Source of the DNA: a virus
Lineage: Duplodnaviria; Caudoviricetes
DNA: 46,660 bases
Virus record (IMG/VR): IMGVR_UViG_3300042347_001156
Coordinates: 1-46,660 of that record
Strand: one strand, 5' to 3'
Positions 3,775 to 43,338 of the stretch are shown piece after piece (within the stretch, counting starts at the first letter, position 1; each line of letters begins with the position of its first letter). The notes below the pieces were generated by a model. It was not told where the DNA came from, ran no database searches, and worked only from the letters and a program-made list of their open reading frames with translations. Made by a program: the position numbers and the translations under genes.

Positions 3775-4311
3775 GTGAATATATTCGTAACAAGCGAAGA
3801 CCCGGTTATTGCAGCACAAGAGCTCTGTGATAAACATGTCAGATCTAAGATGCAAATTGAATCTGCTATTATGCTACAGAACTGTTTTACAAATGAACAG
3901 TTACAAGATCCAAAATGTCCGAGAACTAAGGCCGGTAAAGCTCGTAAAGCAGGTAAAGGATATGCTAAACACCAATGCACTCTTTGGACTATGGAGTCGA
4001 GAGCTAACTTTATGTGGCTGGTGGAACATGCTTTAGAAATGTTCGACGAAAGAGATTATCGCTGGCCGGAATCTAACCCTCATTTTACTAGAGAGTTTAT
4101 TGAATGGTGTAAACAAAACAAAGATAAGACTATTCATACGTCTAACAAGCAGACACCTTTTACTGTTGCTATATCTCAAGATACTGAATGCCGGAAAATT
4201 AATGACTTTGATAAACTTTCAGTTATTGAACAATACCGGCAGTACATTATTAAAGATAAACCTTTTGCTTCCTGGACTAAAAGAACTAAGCCCTTTTGGT
4301 ATACAACTTAA
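3775..4311 (+). CDS. Pyrimidine-dimer DNA glycosylase (endonuclease V)-like protein
   Basis: MNIFV..DP..AA..LCDKHV..KM..ESA.ML, H.CT.W, YRQY...K.FA.WTKR..PFW family signature. Confidence 0.75.
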   Translation: MNIFVTSEDPVIAAQELCDKHVRSKMQIESAIMLQNCFTNEQLQDPKCPRTKAGKARKAGKGYAKHQCTLWTMESRANFMWLVEHALEMFDERDYRWPESNPHFTREFIEWCKQNKDKTIHTSNKQTPFTVAISQDTECRKINDFDKLSVIEQYRQYIIKDKPFASWTKRTKPFWYTT

Positions 4312-4319
4312 GTATTTTA

Positions 4320-4613
4320 ATGCCTAAACGCACATCAATGTATATACCTCTCCCGATGCCTCCTACGTCGGAAGAAAAGTTTGCTGTCTATTTAAACATT
4401 GATGGTGACTTGGAGATGTTGCTCTATGACGGAAAACAAGTTTTTACCCCTGACTTCCCTGATGTACCAATTGTAAGAATAGATCTTAAGGACGGTAGAG
4501 TTATAAGACAAGAAACATTAGCTAGACTTTGTCGGCATCTAATGAACCGTAGTATGGTAGCTTATAACGAAGAATACAAGATCTGGGAAGCAATTACTCT
4601 TGATCCTTTTTAA
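4320..4613 (+). CDS. Hypothetical protein
   Basis: ORF following the glycosylase gene; ATG 4320 avoids overlap with it. Confidence 0.55.
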   Translation: MPKRTSMYIPLPMPPTSEEKFAVYLNIDGDLEMLLYDGKQVFTPDFPDVPIVRIDLKDGRVIRQETLARLCRHLMNRSMVAYNEEYKIWEAITLDPF

Positions 4614-5683
4614 GTTATTCTAAAAACTAATAATATTTCGCAAGAGTTGCTATGTTTTGATAAGTGGGATTTATTTTTTGCTAACTTTTGTTCAAGCAAA
4701 AGATCAAACTTTTGAAGCGGTTTTTTAATTATTTCTTTATGCTCGCTATCAATAACAACACCAAAATATTTACAATTAGTTTGTAAACAGTTTTTAACAA
4801 CTTTGTTCCACCAATTTGTAAAGTCATTTATATCTTTGAAGTTTTTATTGTTGTACGTTTCTTTATTGTAGTACGGTGGGCAAGTAAATACTGCATCGAC
4901 ACTATGAGACGGTACGTATTCTTCTGCTCGATTATTTGTTAATACAGTTTTGCTCTCAAGATTAGCAAACTTTGCAATCTGTTCTACACCTTTAACAGTT
5001 CTTAGATCGAAATCGTTGTAGTAATATTTATCAATACTAGTTCCTAATATGCCTAGTAAGCGGTGTCCCCAACCTCCGCACGGATCGTAAATTGTTTTAA
5101 CACTAAAATCATTTATAAATTTTTTAAACCATAGAGGAGAAAAGTGCGAATATCCGTAGTGTAACCCTGATATTTTGAACCCACGAAGTATTTCACCTTG
5201 TGTTATCTTGTGTATATTTTTTTGTAAATATTTTTCACGGTTTAATAGCAGCTTTTTAGCTATTTTTTTATTAGTATAGAGTTCTCTTTCTTTTTCGTAA
5301 AAATGCTGCTGAAAGGTGAGTATGTTTCGATTATAAACTGGTAGTGTATCGTAGCTGCCAGGTGCTTTTAGCAATGTATCTAGTTCAATTTGTCTCTGCT
5401 TATCGGTATAAAATATGCGTGGTTCAATTTTAATTTGTTTGAGAGTGCGTTGGTATTGTTTAAAATATTCTCTCTTTTGAGGATCATAAGGCTTTCGAGG
5501 CAGATTTTGTTTTATAAGAGAATATTTTTTATTTTCTTTTTCTAGTGTCTTCTGTCGATGATCAGGGTCTGACCAATAGCGAATGGTATCCGGGTATATT
5601 TTAAAATGTTTAGCTGTTTTTGTAATACCGTTTTGTTTGTAGTACTTTAGTACAGATGTTTTAAATTCTTGTGTATATGCCAT
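4610..5683 (-). CDS. DNA amino-methyltransferase (m4C/m6A type) with N-terminal HTH
   Basis: Motif I YDPCGGWGHRLLG, motif II YYYND, motif IV variant FTCPPYY; N-terminal YTQEFK..VLKYY...IRYW HTH-like segment. Confidence 0.8.
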   Translation of the reverse strand: MAYTQEFKTSVLKYYKQNGITKTAKHFKIYPDTIRYWSDPDHRQKTLEKENKKYSLIKQNLPRKPYDPQKREYFKQYQRTLKQIKIEPRIFYTDKQRQIELDTLLKAPGSYDTLPVYNRNILTFQQHFYEKERELYTNKKIAKKLLLNREKYLQKNIHKITQGEILRGFKISGLHYGYSHFSPLWFKKFINDFSVKTIYDPCGGWGHRLLGILGTSIDKYYYNDFDLRTVKGVEQIAKFANLESKTVLTNNRAEEYVPSHSVDAVFTCPPYYNKETYNNKNFKDINDFTNWWNKVVKNCLQTNCKYFGVVIDSEHKEIIKKPLQKFDLLLEQKLAKNKSHLSKHSNSCEILLVFRIT

Positions 5684-6438
5684 TATGATGTAATTTTATT
5701 AGACTTCTTGAGGTTTTCTTCTTTCCAAAGTGGTTGAAGATTGGTGTAATGAAAGCATTTTTTGAGCTCTTCCTCTTTAGTTAAGTCAAAAGAAGAGCAA
5801 GGAATAATATGATCAACGTGCCACTCTTTTCCATAATTTTGATCTGTCATTCCTGGCTTATACTGTTTACGGAGATGTTCTGCTAGCTCGTCCCGGCTAC
5901 ACCCAAGCAATGCCTGTGTTTTAATAGTCTTTTTATTTGCTAAACCGTTGTAGGCTTTTTTAAGCTGTTGGTAAACATACACTCGGGTATTTTCAAGTAT
6001 TTTAAAGGCCATATCCGTCTCTTTACGGTGTTTGATTTTATTTTTAATTTGCTCTCTGTTGAGTGCCCTTCTTTTCCGATCATACTCCCGAACGTGCTCA
6101 ATATTGTTAAGTCTCCACTCTTTGGTCTTTTGATATCTCTCTTTTTTAAACTCAGGATCAGTATTCATCAATGTTCTATACCGAGTATTAACACTATAAT
6201 ATAGCTCTTTATATTTTTCAGGGTTTTTTTCTTGCCACTTCTTATTTGCCTCATTAGATCTTGTGGTTATTTTTTTTCTATAAACAGGGTCAACCCACGA
6301 CCTAACAATATGAAAACCTATTTTAGGGTACAGCTCTCTAACCTTTTTAACAGTTGCTTTAAGATCTTTACAGTTATTGTAATAATTTACAATATTATTT
6401 TTAAATTCTTTGGTGTACTTGTGTCCTACTTTACTCAT
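5683..6438 (-). CDS. HNH (endonuclease VII-like) nuclease with N-terminal HTH
   Basis: LGCS...GMT..NYG.EWHVDHIIPCSSFDL...CFHYTNLQPLW..ENLKK; its TAA overlaps the MTase ATG (TAATG). Confidence 0.85.
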   Translation of the reverse strand: MSKVGHKYTKEFKNNIVNYYNNCKDLKATVKKVRELYPKIGFHIVRSWVDPVYRKKITTRSNEANKKWQEKNPEKYKELYYSVNTRYRTLMNTDPEFKKERYQKTKEWRLNNIEHVREYDRKRRALNREQIKNKIKHRKETDMAFKILENTRVYVYQQLKKAYNGLANKKTIKTQALLGCSRDELAEHLRKQYKPGMTDQNYGKEWHVDHIIPCSSFDLTKEEELKKCFHYTNLQPLWKEENLKKSNKITS

Positions 6439-6481
6439 ACCTATTAATAAACCTTTAAAAACATAAATCTATAGACTATCT

Positions 6482-6497
6482 ATACATAATTATGTAT
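6482..6497. promoter_or_regulatory. Perfect 16-bp palindrome ATACATAATTATGTAT, candidate operator
   Basis: Self-complementary; overlaps the -10 of a minus-strand TTGCAA-N16-CATAAT promoter candidate upstream of the HNH/MTase pair. Confidence 0.4.
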
Positions 6498-6548
6498 TAC
6501 TACTATAATTTTGCAACCTATTTTTAAGTTTTTTGGTTACTATAAATT

Positions 6549-6580
6549 AAAAAGAAACTCCCGGCTTTCACCGGGAGTTC
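6549..6580 (-). terminator. Rho-independent terminator of major capsid transcript
   Basis: Minus strand AACTCCCGGT-GAAA-GCCGGGAGTT followed by TCTTTTT. Confidence 0.9.
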
Positions 6581-6612: not shown

Positions 6613-8055
6613 TTAGAGGTATGTAGCTGCTTGACCTGGTACGAACGATTGACCAAGACCTGTGCAGATTACCATGTGGTAGTAGAGCGAAGCGCCAAAG
6701 ATATGATCCACCACTCCGTAGCGGGTCAAGAGACCAACACGAGGTGAGAAGTCATTTGGGCCAATTGTTCTTTGTACCATTACAGGGATGTACGGACAGT
6801 ACACGATACCTGTATCATAATATTCTGGGCCTTTGTAACCTAACAGAGCATAGTCAACAGTTGTGGCGCGGCCTGTGCTGTAACCAGCATTGGCGTACGA
6901 CTGTGTTGATTGTGCTTCTGTGCGTGTGTCACGATAGATCTGGAAACGGCCACCTACTGAACCCACTTTAGCGATGCCGACAGGTGCTGTGTTAACATTA
7001 CCTGTGACGGGCTGCCATGTGAAGTTAGGAAGTGTTTCGAGGATTGCGCAGATACGTGGTGTAGCGATGATGAAGTTAGCAGCGCCACGACGGTTGCGAA
7101 CAGCAACGCGGTTTGCTTCAACAACAATTCTGTTGTAGAAGTCACGGGCACGCTCACCTGACCAACGGCCGTCAGCTGAGATAGCTGACCATGTTGAATA
7201 ACCGACGCCAGCGCCAGCATTCAAGCATGTTTGGATCATACGAGCAATCATTTCACGGTCGATCTCAGCTTGAATTTCATATGACATAGCATTTGTCAAT
7301 TCAGCGTCGATGTCGATACCGTTCATGTTCTTCAGATCTTGTTCGAGTTCAACAGACCACTTAGCAGCGAGGCGGCGTGTGCCAGCTTCAACTGCGGTCT
7401 TTTCAAAGGCAACAGTGACTTGAGGGATCTTTGAGGTCAGCTCAAACTGAGAGAGAAGAGCGGCTACACCGGAGTCTTCGACCAAGCCGTTGAAGGCTGT
7501 GCCGGAAGCACCGAGACCTGAAAGCTTAGCACTGGATGTACCAGTGAAGGCTGTGTTCAGGTAGTTATAACCGATTTCTTTACCGTCAGAGATTGCTGTG
7601 TTACCACTAAATGCACCAGCACTGTTTGAACCGTCGCCAGCTTGTGAGCTATAGCCAAGAGCGTCGCTCTCGTATTTATAGCGCATTGCGAAAGCCAATC
7701 CAACAGGGCCTGTCATGGGCTGTACACCAACGATCTCATTTGTGATGAGCTCGGGGAATGTACGGCGGATCATGGGGATCAGGACCTTAGGAAGGCGGTA
7801 ATCGCCAGTAGCATAGGTATCAGTGTTAGGAATGCCAGGAAGAGCACCGGCCGGATATGAATTCGGACCGAATACGCCACCTGCAGTGTTTGACTCAAAG
7901 CACCACTTCTCTTGGTTTTCCAAGAGAATGGCTGTATTCAAACGAGTGTGCTCGTCTGAGATAGCAGCAACTTTGTCTGAGGTGTAATCCAGGACTGGAG
8001 TCCACTTCTCAACCAAAGCTTCGGCCTTTGTCTTATCGATATGCAGAAGTTCCAT
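6613..8055 (-). CDS. gp23: Major capsid protein (T4 gp23 family)
   Basis: EKWTPVLD, LLENQ, GVQPMTGPVGLAFAMR, RRLAAKWSVELEQDLK, EIQAEIDRE, YCPYIP, TRYG; AAGGAG SD upstream. Confidence 0.98.
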   Translation of the reverse strand: MELLHIDKTKAEALVEKWTPVLDYTSDKVAAISDEHTRLNTAILLENQEKWCFESNTAGGVFGPNSYPAGALPGIPNTDTYATGDYRLPKVLIPMIRRTFPELITNEIVGVQPMTGPVGLAFAMRYKYESDALGYSSQAGDGSNSAGAFSGNTAISDGKEIGYNYLNTAFTGTSSAKLSGLGASGTAFNGLVEDSGVAALLSQFELTSKIPQVTVAFEKTAVEAGTRRLAAKWSVELEQDLKNMNGIDIDAELTNAMSYEIQAEIDREMIARMIQTCLNAGAGVGYSTWSAISADGRWSGERARDFYNRIVVEANRVAVRNRRGAANFIIATPRICAILETLPNFTWQPVTGNVNTAPVGIAKVGSVGGRFQIYRDTRTEAQSTQSYANAGYSTGRATTVDYALLGYKGPEYYDTGIVYCPYIPVMVQRTIGPNDFSPRVGLLTRYGVVDHIFGASLYYHMVICTGLGQSFVPGQAATYL

Positions 8056-12602: not shown

Positions 12603-13061
12603 TTATAAGCCAAGATGTTTCTCAGTCAAGATTGAAAAGGAGTAGCCTTTTTTTTCGCACCACTGCTGTGCACTATCCCACTTTGCTCTATTTTTAACAT
12701 ACTCTGCTTGCCGTCTAAGCAACGATCTGGTATTTTTTCCGGGTTTAGGTGGCATGGTTTGAATAGAGGGTTTAATTTCTATTAGAAATTTTTTAAGAGT
12801 TCCATCTTTTGTTTTAAGTGTAACGTTAAAGTCTACAAAGTAACGAGATACTTTTCCAGTAAGAGGGTTATGATAGGGGATAATAACAGACTCTGAGCCC
12901 CATTTTATTACTGCAGGGTTATGGTCACACCATCTGCAGTATTTAAGTTCATAGGAAGATCTCCATAATATCGGAAACGTACCTACATATTTGTCTGGGT
13001 TCTGAGGCTTAAAGATGCCTTGTTTAAACTTTCGATTACGTTTAGGTCTTATCGTGTTCAT
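12603..13061 (-). CDS. gp4: Head completion nuclease (gp4)
   Basis: FKQGIFKPQNPDKYVG, RSSYE, WGSE, RYFVDF, IEIKP, NRAKW, ILTEKHL. Confidence 0.93.
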   Translation of the reverse strand: MNTIRPKRNRKFKQGIFKPQNPDKYVGTFPILWRSSYELKYCRWCDHNPAVIKWGSESVIIPYHNPLTGKVSRYFVDFNVTLKTKDGTLKKFLIEIKPSIQTMPPKPGKNTRSLLRRQAEYVKNRAKWDSAQQWCEKKGYSFSILTEKHLGL

Positions 13062-13941
13062 ACAATTTAAAAAGTTCCTCTTTAGTTATAGAGCATTGTT
13101 TATGTTTCTTTAAATTATCCTTTTGTTCAAGCATTTGTAAATTATATTTTGATGCTATTATTTCACATGGTATTTTGTCTATAAAACCTTGCAATACACT
13201 ATATTTGTGATCTATGTGATATAAACCAGAACCAAACCCTCTTTTTAGTTTTGTAGGGTTTATTATGTCTTTGTATTTTTTGTAAGTTTGTTGTGTTAGA
13301 TAAGTTACCTCGGCTCTATAGTCTTTAAAAAGAGTTAATACCTCTCTTTGGTTTTTAAGCTTCATTGTTTGTGCTCGCTTTTTAAAAATTTTATTTTTTT
13401 CTTCTTCTGTGGCATTCTCCCACCATTTATGAGCCCCTGTTTTAAGTAATACTTCTTTAACGAATTTTTTCTTGTCTTTTAAGGAAAGTCTGTTTAACCA
13501 GCCAAATTTTTCTTTTCTTTCTTGTTCTGTTAGTTTTGCAGTATTATTTTTTCTTGTATTAGAAATTTTTTGTCGGTATTCTATTTTTTCTTGAGGTGTT
13601 CTATTAGCATGCTTATTCTTTAAATTATTTTTAACCTTATTAATATAAATTTGATACTTATTTGGGTCATTTTTTAAATTTTGTTGATGCATTATACCCC
13701 CGCATTTATGACTACAAGTTTTTTTATAACCATCTTTTATATTAATAAATTTAGTAGCACTATTGCATATAACACAACCACTATAACAATTATTTAAAAT
13801 ATACTGATTGTAATATTGTTGACTTGTTATTTTATGTTGATGTTTTATATGCTTAGCAAAAGACAGAAAGTTTTTAAACCACTGTTTACAAATACAGCAC
13901 ACAAGACTTACTTCTCGCGGTTCACAAACTAGCATTTCCAT
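13042..13941 (-). CDS. HNH homing endonuclease with N-terminal zinc fingers
   Basis: C2H2 finger CICKQWF...HIKHQH, CVIC...TCSHKC, C-terminal YHIDHKYS...NLQML...N..K; start uncertain (ATG 13941 or 13935). Confidence 0.8.
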   Translation of the reverse strand: MEMLVCEPREVSLVCCICKQWFKNFLSFAKHIKHQHKITSQQYYNQYILNNCYSGCVICNSATKFINIKDGYKKTCSHKCGGIMHQQNLKNDPNKYQIYINKVKNNLKNKHANRTPQEKIEYRQKISNTRKNNTAKLTEQERKEKFGWLNRLSLKDKKKFVKEVLLKTGAHKWWENATEEEKNKIFKKRAQTMKLKNQREVLTLFKDYRAEVTYLTQQTYKKYKDIINPTKLKRGFGSGLYHIDHKYSVLQGFIDKIPCEIIASKYNLQMLEQKDNLKKHKQCSITKEELFKLYEHDKT

Positions 13942-14234
13942 CTTCTTCTTGCTGCACAACCTCTTGTATCTTTACCTGCACAGCCGCCAGCTGGTATCCA
14001 AGCTTTACTTCTTGCACAAAAACTTTTTCTACGTTTAGAAGCTTTAGAACCTTTTTTAACTTTTCCGGTTACAGGGGCTTTAAGATTAGAGCCAGTAGCT
14101 CGATTATATTTTGCTCTACCCTTAGCAGTTAAGCCACCTCCACGGCTTACAGGTAATTTTTCTCCGCGTTTGATAGATAGACTAGGGGCTTTCTTTTCTT
14201 CAAGTATTTCTAATACTGTATTATTGAAGTCCAT
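13929..14234 (-). CDS. Small basic phage protein (DUF6321-like)
   Basis: GGLTAKGRAKYNRATGSNLKAPV...RRKSFCAR...RRRWKC; family name recalled from memory. Confidence 0.7.
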   Translation of the reverse strand: MDFNNTVLEILEEKKAPSLSIKRGEKLPVSRGGGLTAKGRAKYNRATGSNLKAPVTGKVKKGSKASKRRKSFCARSKAWIPAGGCAGKDTRGCAARRRWKC

Positions 14235-15212: not shown

Positions 15213-15842
15213 ATGGATAATATTTTTAATAATCAAACTAACAAAGGTGTATATAAAATTACATGCCTTTCTAATAATAAGTTTTATATAGGTAGTTCTA
15301 CCAATATTCGATACCGTATTCAAAGGCACTTTAAAGAGCTAGAACAAAATATACATCTAAACAGATATATGCAAGCCTCTTTTAACAAATATGGTAAATG
15401 TAATTTTGTAGTTGAGTGTGTGGAATGCTGTTCTGAAGAAATTACAGATAAAGATCTTTTAAATCTCGAACAAAAATATCTAGATAATTTTAAACCATAT
15501 AATGAAGATATTGGTTTTAATATTTGTCAAAAAGCGGCTTTTCCGCCCAATCGTAAAGGTAAGAAGTTAACAGAAGAACATAAACAAAACATTTCAAACG
15601 CTCGTAAGGGTATAACACATAAACAAATAAGCTCATTAAAAGGTAAAACCGCAAAAGAAATTCACGGACAAGATTGGGTTGATTCTAGAAAAGGTAAAAC
15701 CGCAAAAGAAATATACGGTGATAATTGGGTTGATCCCCGCAAAGGTAAAACATATAAAGAAATTTACGGTCCAAACTGGATTGAACAACGTAAAAAATTA
15801 TCAATAGCAGCAAAAAATAGAAAACGAAAAATAATTTTATAA
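15213..15842 (+). CDS. GIY-YIG homing endonuclease with NUMOD3-like and repeated DNA-binding motifs
   Basis: GVYKI...FYIGSS, R...H, EQKYLD, GFNI; KKLTEEHKQNIS; inserted antisense between gp14 and gp13. Confidence 0.92.
   Translation: MDNIFNNQTNKGVYKITCLSNNKFYIGSSTNIRYRIQRHFKELEQNIHLNRYMQASFNKYGKCNFVVECVECCSEEITDKDLLNLEQKYLDNFKPYNEDIGFNICQKAAFPPNRKGKKLTEEHKQNISNARKGITHKQISSLKGKTAKEIHGQDWVDSRKGKTAKEIYGDNWVDPRKGKTYKEIYGPNWIEQRKKLSIAAKNRKRKIIL
15639..15791 (+). repeat. Three 51-nt (17-aa) tandem repeats KGKTxKEIxGxxWxxxR
   Basis: Units start at 15639, 15690 and 15741. Confidence 0.9.
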
Positions 15843-42374: not shown

Positions 42375-42539
42375 ATGGAAACTATCGTTAATACAATTAA
42401 TGGAACGTATATCGTCCCCGCAGACAAATTAGATCAGTTAATTCAATGGTTAGAAATTAATGCCGTAAAACCTGGTGCAAAACCTATTGGAGAAATCAAA
42501 GAAGGGGTATATACTGGACGTCAGCTTATCAATGAATAA
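42375..42539 (+). CDS. Small hypothetical protein, 54 aa
   Basis: Not in ORF track: METIVNTINGTYIVPADKLDQLIQWLE...GRQLINE; preceded by TTGCTT-N16-TATTAT. Confidence 0.6.
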   Translation: METIVNTINGTYIVPADKLDQLIQWLEINAVKPGAKPIGEIKEGVYTGRQLINE

Positions 42540-43338
42540 TGTATGTCCTCTTTCTTCGGCGTAAATTGCCCCAAATACCGGTTTGTAAAAATATTTGAGC
42601 ATTAAGTCTTCTTGTTTTAAGCATTTGTTGTACGTTAGGGTGTTGGCTTTTTTGTTTTAAAAATAAAGTAAACTCTTCTTCAGACATTTTAGCTAAAACT
42701 AAATCTCCCTTTTTGCCGTTTTGATTACCTTTTAACTTTTCAGAAGTTATTTTTCTACCTAAATTATTTTCTTTTGTTTTACCTAGTTTTTGTTCTCGTA
42801 AAATTTGATTTATTTCATTACGTTTTTTCTTTTGAGTTTCTCGAGATTTTTGTAACGCTATATCAGGTAGACATTTACCCTTCATTCTTAAACTGTGTTC
42901 TTTATCAGCTTTAAGTCTTGCAAGAGATCGCCCATTTTTATATTTTTTAGCATCTCCGATTTTTTGAGCTTCGGTTCGTTGCTCCCCTTTCAGTAAAACT
43001 TTATAATGGGTTTTTGCATAATTTTCTTTTGGGTATACCTTGCTTAAAGTAGTCCATCTTGCATTGCCGTTTATGCGGTTATAAAAATTTTTATTTTGAG
43101 CTGCGTTAATTTTTTGTAAATATTTCTCTTCCGCTATAATTGCGTCTTTTTCATCTTCATAGTACCTTACAATTGTTTTTTTGAAATTTTTTATTCCGTA
43201 TTTTTTAATATCTTCTTTAAGATATTTACTACTTCCGTAATAATTGCCGTTATCTTTTTTAATTGTTTTATAACCAAAGTAAAATTTAGGGCCTGGCTTT
43301 TTATTTGTTCTCACTATAATATACGTGTATGCATTCAT
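42529..43338 (-). CDS. Seg-like GIY-YIG homing endonuclease
   Basis: YTY...FYFG, YYGSS...IKKYG..NF, E..YL, FYN; basic C-terminal region. Confidence 0.85.
   Translation of the reverse strand: MNAYTYIIVRTNKKPGPKFYFGYKTIKKDNGNYYGSSKYLKEDIKKYGIKNFKKTIVRYYEDEKDAIIAEEKYLQKINAAQNKNFYNRINGNARWTTLSKVYPKENYAKTHYKVLLKGEQRTEAQKIGDAKKYKNGRSLARLKADKEHSLRMKGKCLPDIALQKSRETQKKKRNEINQILREQKLGKTKENNLGRKITSEKLKGNQNGKKGDLVLAKMSEEEFTLFLKQKSQHPNVQQMLKTRRLNAQIFLQTGIWGNLRRRKRTYIIH

Follow-up and report, generated by a model that had tools for sequence, protein, structure and literature searches.

A paired nuclease and methyltransferase behind the major capsid gene of a T4-like lake phage form a candidate homing cassette with proposed methylation-based self-protection

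The viral record IMGVR_UViG_3300042347_001156, analysed here over its entire 46,660 nucleotides (nt) and hereafter called the window, carries two minus-strand genes immediately downstream of the major capsid gene gp23. They encode a 251-residue nuclease with a helix-turn-helix (HTH) and an HNH domain (5683-6438) and a 357-residue methyltransferase (MTase) with an HTH of its own (4610-5683). We propose, with confidence that stands about midway between doubt and conviction, that this two-gene cassette is a free-standing homing endonuclease that spares its carrier through methylation, both activities being predicted. Filled and empty alleles, a foreign patch in gp23, tight linkage of the two genes, fused forms and purifying selection in related cassettes were all observed and support the proposal. 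The source is an uncultured T4-like lake phage, found in lake metagenomes, whose gp23 has its best match among cultured phages at 34%.

The gp23 gene (6613-8055, minus strand), which is the predicted target gene and left homology arm, is followed by a terminator-like hairpin (6555-6580, scored on both strands), and the insert starts just past the T-run of this hairpin. The two cassette genes, nuclease first, share 1 nt in a TAATG stop/start overlap read on the minus strand (5681-5685), which may couple their translation; in most related pairs the genes overlap by 1-19 nt. The open reading frames, the TAATG and the hairpin were all confirmed, as the initial annotation had described them in placing two overlapping genes right after the gp23 terminator. 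Its description of these genes as very AT-rich holds only to a modest degree, as their G+C contents are 33.9% and 31.4% versus 37.2% for the window. The right flank is formed by a convergent small gene (4296-4613, plus strand), which in empty alleles comes directly after the gp23 terminator.

A survey covered 80 gp23 loci, 50 of which have a gene called downstream. The cassette is present in three of the 50, two of them identical to the window and the third a truncated copy (L197; L and P numbers are our handles for loci and proteins), and is absent from the other 47. Empty sites downstream of gp23, for which the initial annotation had recommended a search, were found in L189, whose gp23 is 94% identical, and in L191 and L195, where the same terminator leads directly into the convergent small gene. 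L193 and L194 have a different small gene at this position, and L190, another close allele, has 34 bases downstream and is not usable as an empty allele. One lake run contains cassette contigs at ~97-98% identity along with one empty-allele contig (joint 4522-6572), the latter weak at a depth of 2. Genes for free-standing homing endonucleases sit as dispensable inserts among conserved genes and are missing from the same site in near relatives; the cassette shows this arrangement, and on these sequence comparisons it is mobile. TTAA occurs at both ends of the insert and was rejected as a target duplication because it is too short. Beyond the right flank, a gene of 178 residues (3775-4311, plus strand) with a weak match to pyrimidine-dimer glycosylase (Pfam E 0.014; phrog_624 E 4e-31) is conserved beside the empty site in L191 and L193.

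Within gp23, codons 407-473 (6637-6835, minus strand) form a foreign synonymous patch that carries the sequence signature of co-conversion. Synonymous identity to L189 is 23/64 in the patch versus 135/156 in codons 241-405 (Fisher p 2e-13), and 39 of the 73 fixed differences in gp23 fall within these 67 of its 480 codons, with the dip deepest at codons 421-450. Close alleles agree mutually at ~56/64 in this region; of the six, five do so at 51-62 of ~64 and L194 at 38-42. The patch is a candidate co-conversion tract, predicted to span the target in the empty allele. Past the patch, the final codons of gp23 and the terminator resemble the empty alleles once more, and the tract therefore does not simply run on into the insert. 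Another lineage, represented by L025 and L031, shows the 3' end of gp23 travelling with the cassette: the two share a cassette, and their gp23 identity is 0.94 at the 3' end and 0.77 mid-gene. Base differences between carriers and empty alleles along gp23 are confounded by kinship, and GACTT at codon 435, tried as a carrier signal, was not clear (11 of 12 carriers, 21 of 30 others). The 5' codons of the window gp23 (7900-8055) show 15 fixed differences from close alleles in codons 1-49, a possible second exchanged tract.

It is highly probable, given the alleles and the patch, that the nuclease cuts the empty gp23 gene and that repair copies the patch together with the cassette. The nuclease would use its HTH and basic helices to bind a long site and would nick or cut within the last ~200 nt of the empty allele, after which repair from the carrier would copy the patch and both genes into a co-infecting phage. 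Free-standing nucleases are reported to cut hundreds of bases away from their own gene and to co-convert the flanks (PMC2988022). An attack on host DNA, as entertained initially, is disfavoured by the gp23 patch, which points to homing instead.

The AlphaFold model of the nuclease (predicted local distance difference test, pLDDT, 88.9) starts with three helices, continues in a long chain of basic helices and ends in an HNH-type (beta-beta-alpha-Me) domain. The N-terminal HTH (residues 8-50; 6289-6417, minus strand) is recognized by BLASTP, AlphaFold and profile-profile comparison. In the predicted active-site region (residues 205-245; 5704-5826, minus strand), which has no CxxC zinc pairs, residues D209-H210, N233 and N242 are invariant in all 16 aligned homologues. 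Structural neighbours are viral HNH and intron-encoded endonucleases; a Foldseek search of the model against the PDB returned nothing below E 0.001, a sequence search of solved structures gave no meaningful match, PADLOC left the nuclease unmatched, and Pfam and NCBIfam at cut-off named neither it nor the MTase. The designation "endonuclease VII-like" agrees with the PHROG label (phrog_1035, E 5e-7), but the nuclease has neither the DHDH motif nor the CxxC zinc motifs by which that family is defined. The F-CphI family is defined by the DHDH plus CxxC pattern (PMC6083498), and the DHHRN (F-CphI/Endo VII) signature of DHDH with CX2-4C/CX2C zinc ligands was not found in the nuclease, whose motif reads VDHIIP. 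An intact nuclease motif under purifying selection, as is characteristic of homing endonucleases, was found, the selection having been measured on related cassettes only and not on the window's own; there, nonsynonymous divergence (dN) is well below synonymous divergence (dS) in both genes (for example 0.056/0.37 and 0.060/0.62 for L025/L030). The same HNH family also occurs within longer proteins annotated with PF14890 (P0244, P0245, P0247, P0249 and P0250), which we take to be an intein splicing domain, and this occurrence is consistent with a homing role.

The MTase model (pLDDT 89.2) consists of the HTH (residues 3-40; 5564-5677), a conserved helical domain ahead of motif I (residues 94-172; 5168-5404), which is a candidate target-recognition domain, and a Rossmann-fold catalytic domain (4619-5137), all on the minus strand. 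The amino-MTase motifs recognized initially, DPCGGWG (5066-5086) and CPPY (4871-4882), lie in the catalytic domain and are invariant in 28 of 28 aligned homologues. They follow the plan of amino DNA MTases, in which a class I S-adenosylmethionine-binding fold has motif I and then a PPY-type motif IV. Motif IV is normally (S/D/N)PPY, and in CPPY a cysteine takes the place of the usual S/D/N. The enzyme is probably an amino DNA MTase acting on cytosine N4 (or else on adenine N6). In PHROG and PADLOC it matches DNA MTases, Type II MTase profiles among them only weakly, and the nearest Atlas clusters are automatically named N4-cytosine DNA MTases, with PF01555 on a minority of members. Searching solved structures by sequence with the MTase alignment left it unmatched, and by fold the best solved matches are the RNA methyltransferases Trm14, TrmN and Trm11 (Z ~18, root-mean-square deviation 2.3-2.4, 169-171 residues aligned), so the fold does not fix DNA as the substrate. 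These tRNA and rRNA amino-methyltransferases, and the placement beside late structural genes, would suit an enzyme that acts on RNA or one whose mark serves regulation or packaging unrelated to nuclease protection. Such a role is very improbable in our view given the names of the nearest Atlas clusters, the DNA MTase matches in PHROG and PADLOC, the DNA-binding arms and the DNase partners.

The pairing of nuclease and MTase extends to many other phages. A census took in 60 non-redundant loci that extend 1.1 kb or more upstream from the MTase core; a nuclease was fused or adjacent in 58 of them (55 recognized by profile or motif, 3 by eye), and at least four types of nuclease were involved. Nucleases matched by a custom profile, Vsr/PD-(D/E)xK-like to judge from their motifs, were fused in 32 loci and adjacent in 7; the others were window-type HNH nucleases (12 adjacent, 1 fused), zinc HNH nucleases (2 fused) and one LAGLIDADG nuclease, the last by Pfam. 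The MTase core lies beside capsid or tail genes in contigs from lakes, the sea, the rumen and the gut, and among 55 scanned neighbours, hand-chosen from 104 listed, major head proteins account for 34 and tail sheath or tube proteins for 6. From the nuclease side, a search with the HTH arm of one subfamily found the MTase next in 18 of 18 loci, with a query drawn from MTase-linked nucleases and with hits that amount to ~9 distinct cassettes on contigs already found via the MTase. These 18 loci, along with single-chain fusions in the same order, bear out the coupling of the two genes that had been noted in the window. Context searches with the window-type nucleases P0124 and P0130 yielded no loci; for the nuclease subfamily nearest to the window's own, the evidence of linkage comes from the window, from the truncated L197 and from the putative same-contig pairs P0005/P0122 and P0029/P0129. 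One further protein of the same HNH family (P0253, 485 residues, 13 contigs) has a C-terminal Mom domain (Pfam E 5.5e-13), a second DNA modifier unrelated to the MTase.

Linked nuclease and MTase genes are also the hallmark of Type II restriction-modification (R-M), and a Type II-like pair would cut a short, frequent site to degrade host DNA or to exclude competitors genome-wide, the MTase protecting the phage. The shared operon and the weak matches to Type II MTase profiles would be in keeping with this, and restriction enzymes with an Endo VII motif, such as Hpy99I, do adjoin methylases (PMC6083498). Against it stand the fixed position beside conserved structural genes, the local nature of the gp23 patch, the extended homing-type arms, and a nuclease whose relatives are HNH or intron-encoded endonucleases and which PADLOC does not match; the bias of 4-6-mers over the 46 kb of the window revealed no candidate methylation motif and no clear avoided palindrome. 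We regard a pair of this kind as improbable.

The duplicated N-terminal HTH reported initially is genuine: BLASTP aligns the two N-termini with 18 of 55 residues identical (33%, E 9e-5), none of 5000 shuffles reached the alignment score, and profile-profile comparison matches them at 94.8% probability over 58 columns. Each AlphaFold model opens with a three-helix unit, and BrkDBD and HTH_28 match the MTase N-terminus weakly, short of the cut-off. The further idea that a matched HTH pair steers cutter and protector to one site was not supported, as the partner HTH came out among the top two matches for only 3 of the 15 pairs compared; the window MTase HTH itself scores up to 111 against nucleases of other cassettes and 63 against its own partner. 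An arm is missing altogether from five split MTases, and in other pairs the arms differ. The MTase HTH is conserved about as strongly as the MTase core, with dN well below dS in 5 of 6 comparisons, which argues that it has a function. Copying of the partner's arm onto the MTase recurs, with 76 of 111 residues identical in L013 and 46 of 115 in L053, where the arm is of an unrelated type. From these comparisons, we favour repeated fusion, splitting and recombination as the source of the duplication, and we take the arm to be an accessory unit for DNA binding or autoregulation, renewed at times from the partner. It would aid DNA binding or autoregulation without being the sole determinant of specificity. 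Regulatory N-terminal domains on MTases (PMC3978073) and autorepression by I-TevI (PMC2988022) are both known.

Single-chain forms suggest how the pair arose. Of 438 MTase homologues found, the best 120 were examined for fused motifs, and 20 of these carry an HNH motif and 5 a PD-(D/E)xK-type motif on the same chain. An HTH-HNH-MTase fusion lies directly after gp23 in L010 and L011, and in L089 the fusion is on the opposite strand, facing gp23. Fusions in L045 and L117, as in L089, face the 3' end of the capsid gene from the opposite strand, which suggests that position matters more than co-transcription. A tree of the Rossmann domain places the window in a clade with 98% support that holds 14 fusion-type and 5 two-gene-type MTases interleaved with one another, and the helical domain gives the same grouping with 82% support; these are quick trees of 46 selected proteins in which most two-gene labels are inferred from architecture. 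The split L270 MTase shares its arm and core with the fusion P0241. Behind the major capsid gene of L044 (3114-6711), two complete nuclease-MTase fusions with different nuclease types stand in tandem and may represent an intermediate on the way to split pairs, and short remnants of the HNH C-terminal motif at the C-terminus of the MTase P0040 and the N-terminus of P0109 are apparent scars of rearranged tandem cassettes. The window pair fits a split form of the single-chain HTH-HNH-MTase with continuing recombination. On this account an MTase-bearing gene would have lost its HNH beside an intact nuclease gene, and this loss would explain the paralogous HTH.

As for self-protection, the MTase would methylate an exocyclic amino group, likely cytosine N4, in or near the nuclease site. 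Carrier DNA would arrive methylated and stay at least hemimethylated, rival DNA would be unmethylated, and converted recipients would become immune. That methylation of the site, or of a motif within it, is how the MTase protects the carrier seems to us as apt to prove right as wrong. The strongest argument in its favour is convergence, in that a single MTase core is joined to several nucleases and a single nuclease family to two unrelated modifiers.

Much of the same evidence could be read as a homing endonuclease that is spared by the recoded gp23 patch, with the MTase a hitchhiking orphan anti-restriction enzyme of short motif, the fusions a result of gene-boundary loss at a hotspot, and the HTH retained for DNA binding or autoregulation. 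The recoded patch, HTHs that are not matched to their partners, MTases that are bare or HNH-deleted, and one conserved MTase core beside unrelated nuclease types would all follow, GIY-YIG and Vsr-like nucleases unaccompanied by this MTase also occupy the site after gp23, and trans homing of passengers is known (PMC2790892). A mere passenger is harder to reconcile with a nuclease that is absent at only 2 of 60 loci of the MTase clade, with an MTase that repeatedly bears a copy of its partner's arm, including the unrelated arm type (L013, L053), and with the fusion of the same HNH family to Mom. We consider this explanation, the main rival, a possible but doubtful one.

Several observations nonetheless weigh against methylation-based self-protection. 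The most forceful is that recoding of the window gp23 over the candidate target could by itself confer immunity, with no need of methylation, as has been proposed for MobE (PMC2790892). The empty allele L208 shares its gp23 3' end (0.92) with the fusion carrier L010, which cassette loss fits as well as methylation-only immunity does. An MTase stands without a nuclease in L051 and L122, the two such loci of the 60, and HNH-deleted fusions exist (P0012, P0016), so the MTase can persist alone. The HNH gene stands alone after gp23 in L331, and across the wider HNH family an MTase is present at 2 of 82 loci, one of which is the window's own sequence, a few of the 82 having less than 1 kb downstream. 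The MTase census was itself seeded with the HTH-MTase alignment and excluded more distant relatives, and the low ranks of partner HTHs and the RNA methyltransferase folds described above count in the same direction.

More broadly, and as a tentative suggestion that we rate a little below an even chance, these cassettes may represent a class of phage selfish elements that joins homing with R-M logic. A portable MTase (or Mom), swapped among HNH, Vsr-like, LAGLIDADG and other nucleases, would give epigenetic immunity, so that conserved genes could be attacked without a resistant allele; in the split form of the window, the MTase would have been given its partner's arm in copy and may modify just one long site.

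Ahead of the cassette lies a Sigma70-like promoter match, TTGCAA-16-CATAAT (6489-6516, minus strand), which is a consensus match only. The motif TAAATA is missing before the window cassette and present before most related cassettes; in the window it lies at most 60 nt from the start of 18 of the 36 genes of at least 150 residues and is probably a T4-type late promoter. An operator was sought in the cassette promoter, where a 16-bp palindrome over the -10 box was equalled by 325 of 3000 shuffles, is not kept in other carriers and bears no likeness to the gp23 patch. In RNA runs, only 0.06 of the sequence words were present.

Three other homing-endonuclease-like genes of the window are lower in G+C than the cassette (27-30%). 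The first (13042-13959, minus strand, 27% G+C) is a second HNH-type gene with a zinc-finger-like N-terminal region; it overlaps the next gene and probably encodes a free-standing homing endonuclease. The second (15213-15842, plus strand) encodes a GIY-YIG endonuclease (Pfam E 3e-10) on the strand opposite to its neighbours, with three tandem 17-residue repeats near its C-terminus, and the third (42529-43338, minus strand, 29.5% G+C) a SegE-like GIY-YIG endonuclease. Among relatives, the site after gp23 is occupied by a GIY-YIG gene in L246-L248 and by two long Vsr-like/DUF7487 nuclease genes in tandem in L230 (4989-8032) and L255 (2818-6028), each with a conserved C-terminal domain that resembles Hef-type proteins.

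We found no description of homing nuclease-methyltransferase cassettes in a full-text collection that covers few subscription papers or in passages of the jumbo-phage survey PMC7824862; a literature search for Mom-nuclease fusions likewise found none, and a precedent is possible. New from the window are the two-gene HNH form, an account of the duplicated HTH, and a set of filled and empty alleles with a mapped candidate target. Self-sparing of free-standing homing endonucleases, in the literature read, depends on target polymorphism or an intron (PMC2988022, PMC2790892, PMC6083498). Methylation-based immunity, if true, would be a third route, linking homing and R-M. Given the wide spread of the MTase core over habitats, such cassettes may influence how phages compete with one another and contribute to mosaicism at the 3' ends of capsid marker genes. 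The two-gene form separates cutter from marker, and with matched alleles and a 200-nt candidate target the question can be tested in vitro. If an exchangeable arm does direct the MTase to a long site, the enzyme would be a natural rare-site methyltransferase and a useful tool.

The cassette resembles several known systems and departs from each. Type II R-M includes single-chain R-M fusions, Type IIC/IIG/IIL such as MmeI. Like these systems, the cassette has a nuclease and an amino-MTase as an operon or one chain, with self and non-self proposed to be told apart by methylation. Unlike them, it has a homing-type nuclease with a predicted long single site, a fixed gene location in lytic-type phages, and one MTase core that is combined with at least four exchangeable types of nuclease. 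M.SsoII and M.Ecl18kI also have a separate N-terminal domain that could autoregulate the operon (PMC3978073, PMC2760811), but they are C5 MTases of bacterial R-M, whereas the cassette HTH is paralogous to that of the nuclease and no operator was found for it. In the ShiLan element, an HNH endonuclease and a DNA methylase likewise occur together in phages; there the methylase gene serves as host to the HNH, which is inserted in it out of frame, while the cassette genes are in tandem or fused in frame and their predicted target is gp23 (PMC11855218). The collaborative homing of F-CphI and the DHHRN family offers a free-standing nuclease with a C-terminal beta-beta-alpha-Me domain labelled endonuclease VII-like and a second element proposed to stop self-cleavage (PMC6083498). 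The cassette nuclease differs in having no DHDH and CxxC pairs, and its proposed protector is a methyltransferase, not an intron. The intronless homing of the T4-like Seg and Mob endonucleases shares an optional nuclease between conserved genes, empty alleles, a position just after gene 23 and a co-conversion-like tract in the adjoining conserved gene (PMC2988022, PMC2790892); T4 segD itself is located between genes 23 and 24 (PMC2988022). Unlike in the Mob proteins, the arm of the cassette nuclease is N-terminal and the HNH domain C-terminal, the reverse of the Mob order, and unlike Seg and Mob elements, for which "methyl" has 0 occurrences in PMC2988022, the cassette has a coupled or fused methyltransferase.

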